Of a stretch of 32,000 bases of DNA, positions 15,450-30,062 are shown piece by piece; within the stretch, counting starts at the first letter, position 1; each line of letters starts with the position of its first letter. The stretch comes from Fibrobacter succinogenes subsp. succinogenes S85 (lineage in GTDB: Bacteria; Fibrobacterota; Fibrobacteria; Fibrobacterales; Fibrobacteraceae). The notes beneath the pieces were generated by a model. That model ran no database searches. It worked only from the letters and a program-made list of their open reading frames with translations, and was not told the DNA's origin. Position numbers and translations under genes: made by a program. Location: NCBI RefSeq assembly GCF_000146505.1, contig NC_017448.1, positions 480,001-512,000 of the forward strand, given 5' to 3'.

Positions 15450-16415
15450 ATGATTTCTACGCTTTTCACGCTTTTTAAGATGTCTCGCCCTGTAAATATC
15501 GTGATTGCCACCATCACGCTTCTCGTGGGTTATACATTGCTGCAGCACAATCCGACCACTCCAGTTCTGATTTTACAGATTATTGGTTTTTCTGCAGCAA
15601 TCGGATTTGCCAACATCCAAAACGACATTCTCGATCTAGAAAGCGACAAGCTAAACCGCCCGGAACGTCCTCTCGTGACAGGTGAAGTGTCCGTCAAGAC
15701 GGCCAAAATAACATGGATTATCCTGATGATCGTCACGCTTCTTTGCGGCATCGGCGATTCCACCATTCAGATTGTAAAATTCATCAACATCGTCAAGGAT
15801 TGGGACCACGCCCTTGATTTTGGATGGATGGGCGCACTCATCTTGGCGTTTCCGATGTTGTTCTTCGCATTTCTCGTCTTTTTGCTTATCGGGTACAACC
15901 ACTATCTCAAGCGTTCACCGGCATTCAAAAACATCACAGTCGCATTTCTCTGCACGACCCCGTTGCTTTACGCCGTACAGCACTTTTTCAATTTTGCAAA
16001 CCACGACTATCCAGAAGAACACATGTGGACAATCATTCCTGCAATACCTTTTGCGTTCTTACTGACCATTGCTCGTGAAATTTACAAAGACCTTGAAGAT
16101 AAGAACGGCGACCTTCAGGCAGGCATTATGACGTTTCCGATTATCGCAGGAGACAAAGTGGCTCGCAGGCTCGCGGGAGACATAATCATCTTTACATGGA
16201 TATCACTCCCTGTACCCGTTTTCTTTTTGGATAAGTTATTTGACCACAATTATCCGCCCCTGTTCCTCGCCTTAACAGCGTTGACGCTGACCCCCACCTT
16301 TGCCATCGTCATGGTAAGCGCAAGTAGCCAAAATTATCGTCGAGCACAGACATTCACTAAATTTGCGATGTTCCTTGGACTCATCACGCTTCTAATCTGC
16401 TCAGTAGTCCAGTAA
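15450..16415 (+). CDS. UbiA-family aromatic/lipid prenyltransferase
   Basis: Eight to nine TM segments. First Asp-rich motif NIQNDILDLESDKLNRPERPLVTG; second motif region REIYKDLEDKNGD. The start could instead be the internal Met at 15480. Confidence 0.8.
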   Translation: MISTLFTLFKMSRPVNIVIATITLLVGYTLLQHNPTTPVLILQIIGFSAAIGFANIQNDILDLESDKLNRPERPLVTGEVSVKTAKITWIILMIVTLLCGIGDSTIQIVKFINIVKDWDHALDFGWMGALILAFPMLFFAFLVFLLIGYNHYLKRSPAFKNITVAFLCTTPLLYAVQHFFNFANHDYPEEHMWTIIPAIPFAFLLTIAREIYKDLEDKNGDLQAGIMTFPIIAGDKVARRLAGDIIIFTWISLPVPVFFLDKLFDHNYPPLFLALTALTLTPTFAIVMVSASSQNYRRAQTFTKFAMFLGLITLLICSVVQ

Positions 16416-16464
16416 CTGATCGCTTTTCCAAGAGGCTCCCCAACTTGAGGAGTTTTTTCATTTT

Positions 16465-16505
16465 GTGTAATATTTTACACTTTTTGTTTTTACAAAATTT
16501 GTAAA
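16465..16505. promoter_or_regulatory. two perfect palindromes sharing TGTAA/TTACA half-sites upstream of the purF -24/-12 box
   Basis: GTGTAA-TATT-TTACAC lies at 16465-16480 and TTTACAAA-A-TTTGTAAA at 16489-16505, about 30-70 nt upstream of TGGCAC. Confidence 0.4.
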
Positions 16506-16535
16506 TCACATAGCAAAATCGGCTCTAGATTTTGA

Positions 16536-16551
16536 TGGCACGCATTTTGCT
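16536..16551 (+). promoter_or_regulatory. sigma54-type -24/-12 promoter upstream of purF
   Basis: Exact TGGCACG-CATT-TTGCT with GG-N10-GC spacing, about 90 nt upstream of the purF ATG on the same strand. Confidence 0.6.
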
Positions 16552-16639
16552 ATCCTATGCGGTCCACTTCTCCGCTTGCACCCGTATGGGTGAGCTACGG
16601 CCTTCGAGGCAAGGGAAGTATTCATTTCAAAGAGGCTTT

Positions 16640-18025
16640 ATGCTCGACGAATTGCACGAAGAATGCGGCGTTATCGGCATTTATAATGGCGACGCCGTTG
16701 TCCGTAATATTACCATGGGCCTTTACGCACTGCAGCACCGCGGTCAAGAAAGTGCCGGTTTTGCAATCAGCGACGGAGACAAGATTCGCGTCCGCAAATC
16801 CATGGGACTAGTTTCAACGTTACTGCGAGAACACAACATTGACGAATTTGACGGTTTCGCCGGCATCGGTCATGTGCGATACAGCACGACAGGTGCAAGC
16901 ACTCTTGCCAACGCACAGCCGATTCTCGTCAGTTGCAAGTGGGGGCAAATTGCAGTCGCCCACAACGGCAACATCACTAACGCCAACGAACTTCGTGCCG
17001 AAATGGAAGCCGATGGCCACATTTTCCAGACCACTTCAGATTCTGAAATCCTTTTACACGAAATAGCACGCACCCAGGCCGATGACCTGGGTGAAGCCAT
17101 AAAAAAAGCCATCACAAAATTTACGGGAAGCTTCTGCCTCGTTTTTATCAGCAAAGATTCCATGTATGTCGCCCGCGATGGTTTCGGTTTCCGCCCGCTC
17201 TCGATTGCCCGCATGGGTAAAGCATGGTGCGTTGCTAGCGAAACCTGCGCATTTGACTTGCTCGGCGCAAACTACGTTCGCGACATCCAGCCCGGTGAAT
17301 TTTTGACCATTACAAAGAACGGGCTCCATTCCGAACGCTTTACGCAAAAAGATCGCCTCGCCCACTGCATTTTTGAATACATCTATTTTAGCAGACCGGA
17401 TTCCAAGATTTTTGAACAAAGTTGCGATAAAATTCGCCGTAAGATGGGCAAGCAGCTCGCCAAGGAATGCCCTGTCGATGCAGACATCGTCATCTCTGTG
17501 CCGGACAGCGCCACAACAGCGGCACTCGGTTACGCACAAGCTAGCGGCATCCGTTTTGAAATAGGCTTACTCCGTAACCACTACGTTGGAAGAACGTTCA
17601 TCGACCCCACGCAAAACGTCCGCGAACAGAAAGTCAAGCTTAAATTCAACCCCATCGTGGGCGTGCTCAAGAACAAGCGCGTTTGCGTCGTCGAAGACTC
17701 CATCGTACGAGGTACAACACTCAAGATTTTATCCAAAATGCTCCGCGATGCAGGCGCACTTGAAGTGCATATCCGTATCGCATCGCCTCCGGTAGCTCAT
17801 CCCTGTTTCTTCGGCATGGACTTCCCGAGTCAAGGCGAACTTGCCGCAAGTTCTATGACGCCTAACGAAATTGCACAAATGCTCGGAGTCGAAAGTCTTG
17901 GCTACCTGAGCGTTGAAGGCATGAAGGAATGTACCGGTGAAGGCGAGAACTACTGCGCCGCATGCTTTGACAACGACTACCCCGATTATATCGGAACCGA
18001 CGCTCAAAAGACACGCTGCGGGTAA
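16640..18025 (+). CDS. purF: amidophosphoribosyltransferase (glutamine PRPP amidotransferase), Fe-S/propeptide type
   Basis: MLDELHEE|CGVIGIY provides the N-terminal nucleophile Cys after a short propeptide. Other motifs are GIGHVRYSTTG, the PRPP loop VCVVEDSIVRGTT, and Cys ligands (CIFEY, CFFGMDFP, CAACFDNDYP). An AAGAGG Shine-Dalgarno lies at 16629-16634. Confidence 0.95.
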   Translation: MLDELHEECGVIGIYNGDAVVRNITMGLYALQHRGQESAGFAISDGDKIRVRKSMGLVSTLLREHNIDEFDGFAGIGHVRYSTTGASTLANAQPILVSCKWGQIAVAHNGNITNANELRAEMEADGHIFQTTSDSEILLHEIARTQADDLGEAIKKAITKFTGSFCLVFISKDSMYVARDGFGFRPLSIARMGKAWCVASETCAFDLLGANYVRDIQPGEFLTITKNGLHSERFTQKDRLAHCIFEYIYFSRPDSKIFEQSCDKIRRKMGKQLAKECPVDADIVISVPDSATTAALGYAQASGIRFEIGLLRNHYVGRTFIDPTQNVREQKVKLKFNPIVGVLKNKRVCVVEDSIVRGTTLKILSKMLRDAGALEVHIRIASPPVAHPCFFGMDFPSQGELAASSMTPNEIAQMLGVESLGYLSVEGMKECTGEGENYCAACFDNDYPDYIGTDAQKTRCG

Positions 18026-27617: not shown

Positions 27618-27891
27618 TCAAAAACCCTTTTTTATTGTAGTGTTTTCAAACACCCTTACGTAAGGTGAAAGATAAAAAAATCGTACGAAAAAAACAATTT
27701 TTAATCATTTTTGGAACCTTTTCAACACCATTCTGTTTTCAAATTTCAAGCCATCAGTAAAACCTCGCAAAAGTTTCATTTTTAAACATTCTCTGTAGTA
27801 ACGACATTTTACAGCAAACATACAGTCTCAAAATTAAACATTTCATAAAATACGGCCTAAGTTCTACCCTATAAAATTGGATTTAACAGTT

Positions 27892-27907
27892 TGGCACGAA
27901 AATTGCT
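27892..27907 (+). promoter_or_regulatory. sigma54-type -24/-12 promoter upstream of groES-groEL
   Basis: Exact TGGCACG-AAAA-TTGCT with GG-N10-GC spacing, about 105 nt upstream of the groES ATG on the same strand. I could not find a CIRCE inverted repeat (TTAGCACTC-N9-GAGTGCTAA). Confidence 0.6.
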
Positions 27908-28010
27908 TCACAAGGGACGAAACAAAAATATGGTCCAATTTGGAACAGCTCCAACGTTCAAGTGGACCAAGCCATTTAACTGGGCAAAAGCCCAAAAGAG
28001 GATAAAAATA

Positions 28011-28292: not shown

Positions 28293-30062
<1,770 letters not shown>

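Follow-up and report, generated by a model that had tools for sequence, protein, structure and literature searches.

The 32,000-nucleotide (nt) stretch of the genome of Fibrobacter succinogenes subsp. succinogenes S85 analysed here (contig NC_017448.1 of assembly GCF_000146505.1, positions 480,001 to 512,000 of the forward strand), referred to below as the window and numbered from its first letter, contains the gene purF (Fisuc_0051), which encodes amidophosphoribosyltransferase. A short element ahead of this gene, at 16536-16551, is likely to be its promoter, dependent on sigma-54 (RpoN) and placing purF within a nitrogen regulon; both the dependence on sigma-54 and the start of transcription are predicted here from the sequence. 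Mechanistically, the purF promoter is ordinary and its target is unusual, and the regulon was not previously described in the literature searched. The searches made returned no literature specific to sigma-54, RpoN or nitrogen regulation in Fibrobacter.

The pattern TGGCACGNNNNTTGCW (TGGCACG-N4-TTGCW) has two exact matches in the window, at 16536-16551 and 27892-27907, both on the forward strand. It was not encountered in 100 dinucleotide-preserving shuffles, and no match is expected by chance. With up to two mismatches allowed, 23 matches were counted where 16.7 were expected; the two exact copies alone are remarkable. A first-pass annotation of this DNA had reported an exact sigma-54 box about 90 nt ahead of purF and co-oriented with it, and had considered two such boxes to exceed chance. 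Both statements hold: 88 nt separate the end of the box from the purF ATG at 16640 on the same strand, the gene matches NCBIfam TIGR01134 at 511 bits, and the second box precedes groES. The further suggestions, that the lineage might use the motif as a major class of promoter or that another factor might recognise it, found no support, and the two boxes seem to represent two sigma-54 regulons that are ordinary but distinct, one serving nitrogen and the other heat shock. No sigma-70-type promoter or intrinsic terminator was found in 16350-16700. The 32-kb window includes no gene for RpoN or for an enhancer-binding protein (EBP), its genes being ordinary housekeeping ones. Around groES, 3.3 kb are identical to the S85 sequence CP001792, in which the window corresponds to about 33450-65449.

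The box is followed by the Fibro-purF leader RNA (Rfam RF02974), which matches the model over its full length (positions 1-75 of 75) and ends 3 nt before the purF ATG. Position 1 of the model coincides with the start of transcription predicted from sigma-54 geometry, 12 nt after the GC of the -12 element, and the same relation is seen in the relatives L003 and L024. This RNA is known only from Fibrobacter, always upstream of purF, and is reportedly an OFF element for the translation of purF, possibly with phosphoribosylamine (PRA) as its ligand; F. succinogenes was the species used in that study, in which the native purF promoter was left uncharacterised (Malkowski et al. 2020, PMC7668255). 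Compared with the motif described there, the leader of the window is a full-length, high-scoring member, and its promoter now appears to be of the sigma-54 type in S85 and of another type in about half of the relatives.

The purF loci were drawn from 80 species genomes, and the leader is present in 22 Fibrobacter sequences, including the window. Nine relatives (L002-L009 and L024) possess a box of the form nGGCA[C/T][G/A]-N4-TTTGC[T/A] at the same place, at -104 from the ATG. Among these ten sequences with the window included (class A), GGCA...TTTTGC, with its GG and GC, is invariant and the distance between box and leader shows no indels, whereas the 10 nt between them and the sequence 5' of the box vary freely. 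The 12 class-B relatives (L001, L010-L017, L030, L042 and L043) keep the leader and have a sigma-54 box on neither strand; a weaker box was sought on both strands of these loci and appeared only in divergent promoters of PII genes in L013, L017 and L043. The class-B loci share a conserved TATATTT[T/G] element (cTATATTTT or TATATTTG) ending 5-6 nt before RNA nucleotide 1, with a longer T-run in L015, L016 and L042. This element resembles the Bacteroidetes -7 element TAnnTTTG. The purF spacer of S85 has no match to TAnnTTTG, and across the spacers of the window such sites are too few for their enrichment to indicate the type of housekeeping promoter.

The class-A box and the class-B element occupy the same position relative to the leader. 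On the purF tree, class-A and class-B sequences are intermingled; the relatives are mostly metagenome-assembled genomes, and chimeric assemblies may inflate this interspersion, though not the existence of both classes. In the sister pairs S85/L001, L003/L012 and L024/L014, homology starts exactly at the 5' end of the RNA and is absent upstream. That one position relative to a conserved leader is taken by two promoter types strongly indicates that the box is a promoter rather than a part of the RNA. Conservation of the box ahead of purF, the lack of which would by the first-pass annotation have spoken against the reading, was found in part only, the box being kept in nine relatives and replaced at the same place by a different promoter in 12. 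More distant Fibrobacterota and other phyla (L018-L080) have neither a sigma-54 box upstream of purF nor the Fibro-purF RNA.

An inverted repeat is found upstream of the box in several copies (Table 1). Two perfect palindromes had been proposed here. The one at 16489-16505 (TTTACAAA-A-TTTGTAAA) is indeed a perfect palindrome of 17 nt. The other, at 16465-16480 (GTGTAA-TATT-TTACAC), has perfect 6-base-pair (bp) arms around a 4-nt spacer that is not self-complementary, and it does not stand as a site in its own right, being composed of the right half of the distal site and the left half of the degenerate middle one. The unit conserved across relatives is TTTACA-N5-TGTAAA, usually in two copies 30-34 bp apart; in S85 the dyads are placed 39 and 73 nt ahead of the box, and the counterpart of the distal one is intact (TTTACA) in the S85-type relatives L024, L130, L137 and L167. 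In 186 kb of Fibrobacter loci, 22 of the 29 exact copies of this unit fall within 400 nt upstream of purF. The possibility that the TTACA/TGTAA dyad is a common genomic repeat was rejected, as in the 32-kb window it occurs only upstream of purF.

The combination of dyads and box is not restricted to purF. On contigs encoding a protein identical to an EBP of S85, the operon dapF-dapL-EBP adjoins glnA (type III glutamine synthetase (GS), GS-III), which is divergent from gltB-gltD-nadE, and dapF, glnA and gltB are each preceded by a perfect-consensus sigma-54 box with tandem dyads about 30 bp apart upstream. In L006 and L008, the box before dapF is preceded by tandem dyads and a third, promoter-proximal dyad. 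Public metagenome contigs were also scanned for two dyads 14-18 nt apart, sigma-54 not being considered and 14 contigs with array-like repeats being set aside. Of the 115 tandem-dyad instances, 36 have within 220 nt a sigma-54 box, defined by a fixed GG and GC and a match at 9 or more of 11 positions. The first genes 3' of boxes matching at least 10 of 11 positions are dapF (16), pyrG, encoding CTP synthase (6), glnA (4), purF (3, and one contig with the purF leader only), gltB (3), gdhA, encoding NADP-glutamate dehydrogenase (2), and the PII gene (1). Several of the contigs have 60-65% G+C, which indicates that the module extends beyond Fibrobacter. It appears from these sequences that the same module drives glnA, gltB and dapF-dapL and, in relatives, gdhA, PII and pyrG, and this sharing would make purF a member of a regulon for nitrogen assimilation and glutamine use.

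The distances from the centre of the proximal dyad to the box fall into the classes 39-41, 51-53, 61-63, 72-75, 83-86 and 92-96. Their periodicity gives a Rayleigh R of 0.685 at 10.75 bp for 61 non-identical promoters, which are phylogenetically related; when each distance value is counted once, R is 0.55 (p of about 3e-4). Phasing of this sort is as expected of an activator that has to reach the promoter complex from a single face of the helix.

Expression data of S85 were taken from an RNA-seq study of 14 chemostat conditions (PMC6204037, Table S2), and Pearson correlations were computed from the tabulated means; the chemostats were carbon-limited and did not involve nitrogen shifts. The purF gene belongs to a cluster of 45 genes (cluster 12) together with dapF, dapL, glnA, gltB, amtB and PII, and correlates with glnA (r = 0.99), gltB (0.98), dapL and PII (0.95 each), amtB (0.91) and dapF (0.86). 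The correlation with its upstream neighbour ubiA is only 0.28. A second gene annotated as amidophosphoribosyltransferase/purF, Fisuc_0707, has a higher mean expression and correlates negatively with Fisuc_0051 (r = -0.44); Fisuc_0051 may be a conditional isozyme specific to nitrogen status. Co-expression independently ties Fisuc_0051 to the predicted regulon.

The search of the genome annotation for rpoN and bacterial EBP genes was successful. S85 has an expressed rpoN (Fisuc_1239, identified by annotation) and at least five annotated and expressed EBPs (Fisuc_0397, 0612, 1121, 1815 and 1882), and Fibrobacteres were scored RpoN-positive in an earlier survey (PMC3372290). The last gene of the dapF-dapL-EBP operon encodes a protein with GAF, Sigma54_activat and HTH_8 domains, and the motif GAFTGA is seen in the L009 orthologue. 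The S85 orthologue (ADL26291, Fisuc_1815) has the same three domains and is annotated as "NifA subfamily". The best NCBIfam match of the candidate EBP is NifA TIGR01817, end to end, at 458.4 bits, below the equivalog cut-off of 528.85; judged by its domains, Fisuc_1815 is NifA-like in architecture and is not filed as NifA. Its genomic linkage and the architecture of the sites suggest that it is the likely binder of the dyads. A sigma-54 promoter of purF with EBP sites upstream, as first proposed, gains indirect support from the presence of rpoN and EBP genes, the conservation of the box, the coincidence of the predicted start with the leader, the phased dyads and the co-expression.

The events at the promoter might proceed as follows. 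Sigma-54 RNA polymerase would hold the -24 GG and the -12 GC (16536-16551) as a closed complex, and EBP dimers, most likely of Fisuc_1815, would occupy the tandem dyads (16455-16505) and form an ATPase ring that, positioned on the correct helix face, would touch the closed complex and open it with ATP. The transcript would then begin exactly with the first nucleotide of the Fibro-purF leader, at about 16562, and the leader would independently gate translation of purF, the reported signal being phosphoribosylamine. The GAF domain of Fisuc_1815 probably senses nitrogen status, and activation would probably occur when glutamine is scarce or 2-oxoglutarate is high. The rationale could be that the glutamine consumers PurF, PyrG and perhaps NadE are raised together with glutamine synthetase and glutamate synthase (GS-GOGAT) at glutamine scarcity, Fisuc_0707 providing the basal activity.

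Table 1. Features of the purF promoter region and the second exact box (window coordinates)
Feature	Position	Strand	Remarks
Distal activator site (putative), TTTTCA-TTTTG-TGTAAT	16455-16471	.	copy of TTTACA-N5-TGTAAA with one mismatch (TTTTCA)
Degenerate middle dyad, TTTACA-CTTTT-TGTTTT	16474-16490	.	same layout in L024, L130 and L167
Proximal activator site (putative), perfect dyad TTTACAAAATTTGTAAA	16489-16505	.	39 nt from its centre to the first base of the box; phase class 39-41
Sigma-54 -24/-12 element (predicted) TGGCACGCATTTTGCT	16536-16551	+	GG 16537-16538, GC 16549-16550; GG-N10-GC within TGGCAC-N5-TTGCW
Predicted transcription start	16562 (+/-2 nt)	+	12 nt past the C of the -12 GC (16550); from sigma-54 geometry
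Fibro-purF leader RNA (Rfam RF02974), riboswitch candidate	16562-16636	+	99.1 bits, gathering threshold 60
purF (Fisuc_0051), amidophosphoribosyltransferase	16640-18025	+	NCBIfam TIGR01134, 511 bits
Second exact sigma-54 box (predicted) TGGCACGAAAATTGCT	27892-27907	+	103 nt before the groES ATG (28011); precedes groES-groEL

Several observations weigh against a sigma-54 promoter of purF activated by Fisuc_1815. The 12 class-B relatives do without the box, and most of their purF loci keep the TTTACA-N5-TGTAAA dyads nevertheless; an EBP has no known way to activate a class-B promoter, and the dyad binder may not be an EBP, or not only an EBP. Fisuc_1815 itself is expressed nearly constitutively (cluster 1) and is an incomplete member of the regulated operon. 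Consensus boxes are found about 50 nt upstream of genes for PII (glnB/glnK-like) in L009 (967, +), L013 (2519, -), L017 (2705, -), L043 (2671, -) and L095 (7948, -), and none of these has a TTTACA dyad within 300 nt. The native purF promoter gave regulated expression in Escherichia coli (PMC7668255), which lacks the cognate EBP. The carbon limitation of the chemostats and the relatedness of the promoters in the phasing statistic belong to the same side, and the literature searched holds no RpoN or EBP mutant, binding, in vitro or 5'-end data on the purF promoter.

The sigma-54 promoter could be real and the dyads could bind a nitrogen regulator other than an EBP, such as a repressor or co-regulator, with an EBP acting from elsewhere or from solution. 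The persistence of dyads at class-B purF loci with a sigma-54 box on neither strand, their presence ahead of a carA-like gene without a box, the position of the third dapF dyad 11-12 nt before the box, typical of a repressor, and the lack of co-regulation of Fisuc_1815 with its supposed targets all speak for this possibility. However, the tandem spacing of 30-31 bp and the strict helical phasing fit an EBP upstream site, the most frequent target is the operon encoding the EBP, and that protein has an HTH_8 DNA-binding domain, so a non-EBP binder is regarded as improbable. As for the class-B dyads, either their binder is not only an EBP, or it works at a promoter that is not of the sigma-54 type, or the sites serve another purpose there.

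The dispensability of the box in class B and the expression of the native promoter region in E. coli could also mean that the box, albeit conserved, is non-functional or only occasionally used and that purF of S85 is transcribed from a housekeeping promoter, as in class B. This is very unlikely, as 16350-16700 holds no sigma-70-like site and the S85 spacer no TAnnTTTG match, the GG and GC are invariant amid diverged flanks, the box is placed as the class-B element is relative to the leader, and purF is co-expressed with the sigma-54/dyad operons and not with its neighbours. It is least credible that the box, which adjoins the conserved RNA at a fixed spacing, is transcribed and belongs to the Fibro-purF RNA or to its expression platform, or is the site of a factor other than sigma-54: it lies outside the Rfam model, 12 genomes have a full-scoring RNA without it, sister-pair homology is lost exactly at the 5' end of the RNA, and near-identical boxes precede groES, glnA, gltB, dapF, PII and pyrG, which have no such RNA.

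The sigma-54 assignment bears on the published reporter work. The leader, together with its "native promoter", was joined to lacZ in E. coli, where the fusion was silent in rich medium and active in minimal medium, and leader mutants in conserved nucleotides behaved like the wild type in rich medium (PMC7668255). If the construct used the sigma-54 promoter, E. coli would need an EBP of its own, and the effect of the medium could be partly borne by the promoter. The contrast between the delta-purF and delta-purD strains reported in the same study (PMC7668255) is not easily explained by the promoter.

Some observations concern the operator and the EBP operon more generally. In L013, L017 and L043, the PII gene is divergent from a class-B purF. 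The sequence TTTACA-N5-TGTAAA is present inside the dapL coding sequence of L006 (at about 5991), L008 (about 6023), L009 (6816) and L101 (3237), where it may be a coincidence of the coding sequence or serve as an internal site regulating the EBP gene that follows. The 157-nt spacer between dapL and the EBP gene in L101 (4085-4241) contains short tandem repeats (TTAGAAC four times and CTAGTAACT-like units), which may explain the nearly constitutive expression of the EBP compared with dapF and dapL. On the minus strand of L207, a carA-like gene (carbamoyl-phosphate synthase small subunit, judged from the N-terminus alone) lies 281 nt downstream of tandem dyads, with no sigma-54 box detectable near them; it is possibly another glutamine amidotransferase tied to the same operator. 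In metagenome contigs, some of them from termite gut (L104, L163, L171, L196, L211 and L217), TTACA-N5-TGTAA is repeated 10-36 times in regular arrays, which show no relation to sigma-54 boxes and probably represent a satellite or CRISPR-like repeat. Many Fibrobacter sigma-54 promoters (L081-L101 and the window) have a G-rich stretch followed by CGAA(A)C at -4 to +6, about the predicted start, as in GGGACGAAAC (groES) and GGGGGCGAAAAC (glnA), and this may be a lineage-specific preference of the initiation region.

The second exact box of the window, TTGGCACG[A/G]AAATTGCTT in its conserved form, does not vary among ten Fibrobacter contigs, whose sequence immediately upstream of it is poorly conserved. 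No TTTACA dyads were found upstream of groES. Two other elements occur there: GTTTCATTTTTAAAC at 27773-27787, about 112 nt before the box, which varies at one position only (A/T) among six diverged Fibrobacter lineages, and a related copy, GTCTCAAAATTAAAC, at 27825-27839, about 60 nt before it. Both are candidate activator sites for a heat-shock EBP. In the S85 RNA-seq data, groES and groEL belong to a chaperone cluster. By convention, the FCB superphylum comprises Fibrobacterota along with Bacteroidota. Sigma-54-dependent groES, grpE and dnaK have been described as a trend in Bacteroidota and Planctomycetota, Fibrobacter not being part of that survey (PMC12316311). As with the sigma-54 chaperone genes of those phyla, a sigma-54 box stands ahead of groES, and the Fibrobacter gene differs in having upstream elements of its own. 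It seems that the groES box is part of a heat-shock regulon distinct from that of purF and of the kind noted in Bacteroidota, with no sign of an unusual promoter class.

The groES 5' leader (27934-27973) contains an inverted repeat, TGGTCCAATTTGGAACA...TGGACCA, which none of the ten Fibrobacter groES loci has lost and which may act as an RNA thermometer or as a hairpin bound by a protein. In the groES-groEL spacer (28293-28427), repeated GACGAAAGA and TCGTCTATCGTCTTTCGTC units are arranged in inverted orientation around a small GC hairpin, GCCGCTTTGCGGC.

In the enteric sigma-54 promoter glnAp2, two NtrC dyads are phased and stand about three helical turns from each other. The proposed Fibrobacter system is similar to this promoter in the -24/-12 promoter, in the tandem 17-bp dyads of 6-N5-6 layout placed about 30 bp apart and 60-150 bp upstream, in the dependence on the face of the helix and in the GS and nitrogen-assimilation targets; the promoter-proximal site at the regulator's own operon suggests autoregulation, as with NtrC. 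Unlike NtrC, the candidate regulator is a NifA-like EBP with a GAF domain and no two-component receiver, its site is TTTACA-N5-TGTAAA and not the enteric TGCACC-N5-GGTGCA, and the regulon reaches nucleotide (purF, pyrG) and diaminopimelate synthesis. NtrB and NtrC are reported absent from rumen bacteria, for which the lack of the classical NtrBC/PII regulatory system was stated and nitrogen regulation suggested to be possibly unnecessary (PMC13196213). With NifA, the candidate EBP shares the GAF-AAA+-HTH architecture, but the dyad does not fit the TGT-N10-ACA site of NifA, and the targets glnA, gltB, dapF, purF, pyrG and gdhA serve ammonia assimilation and amidotransferases, not nitrogenase.

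In E. coli, purF is controlled by a PurR-repressed sigma-70 promoter, and in Bacillus by PurR and a purine riboswitch. As in this classical control, two layers seem to act on the first committed step of purine synthesis, Bacillus likewise having a leader RNA together with control of initiation. At the purF of the window no PurR-type box was identified, and, unlike in the classical cases, the transcriptional layer seems to respond, by way of sigma-54 and an EBP, to nitrogen status and not to purine status.

A broader reading, which is rather doubtful, is that Fisuc_1815 is the master nitrogen regulator of Fibrobacterota, replacing NtrBC and reaching as far as PurF and PyrG, glutamine amidotransferases that serve nucleotide synthesis, and that the purF promoter was swapped repeatedly between the sigma-54 and housekeeping types with the operator kept. 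If this is true, this family of EBPs also acts at promoters that are not of the sigma-54 type, and the E. coli reporter evidence for a "PRA riboswitch" came from a sigma-54 promoter and may need re-examination. The assignment supplies a likely promoter for an orphan riboswitch candidate, one that would need an activator absent from E. coli, which bears on how the reporter assays are read. The alternation of promoter classes at one position before a conserved leader offers a clean natural case of promoter turnover. The tie of PurF, and of CTP synthase in relatives, to nitrogen status through sigma-54 would be an unusual extension of the sigma-54 repertoire. For F. succinogenes, a key cellulose degrader of the rumen, the predictions amount to a testable nitrogen circuit comprising RpoN, a NifA-like EBP, a 17-bp operator and the targets glnA, gltB, dapF-dapL, amtB/PII and purF.

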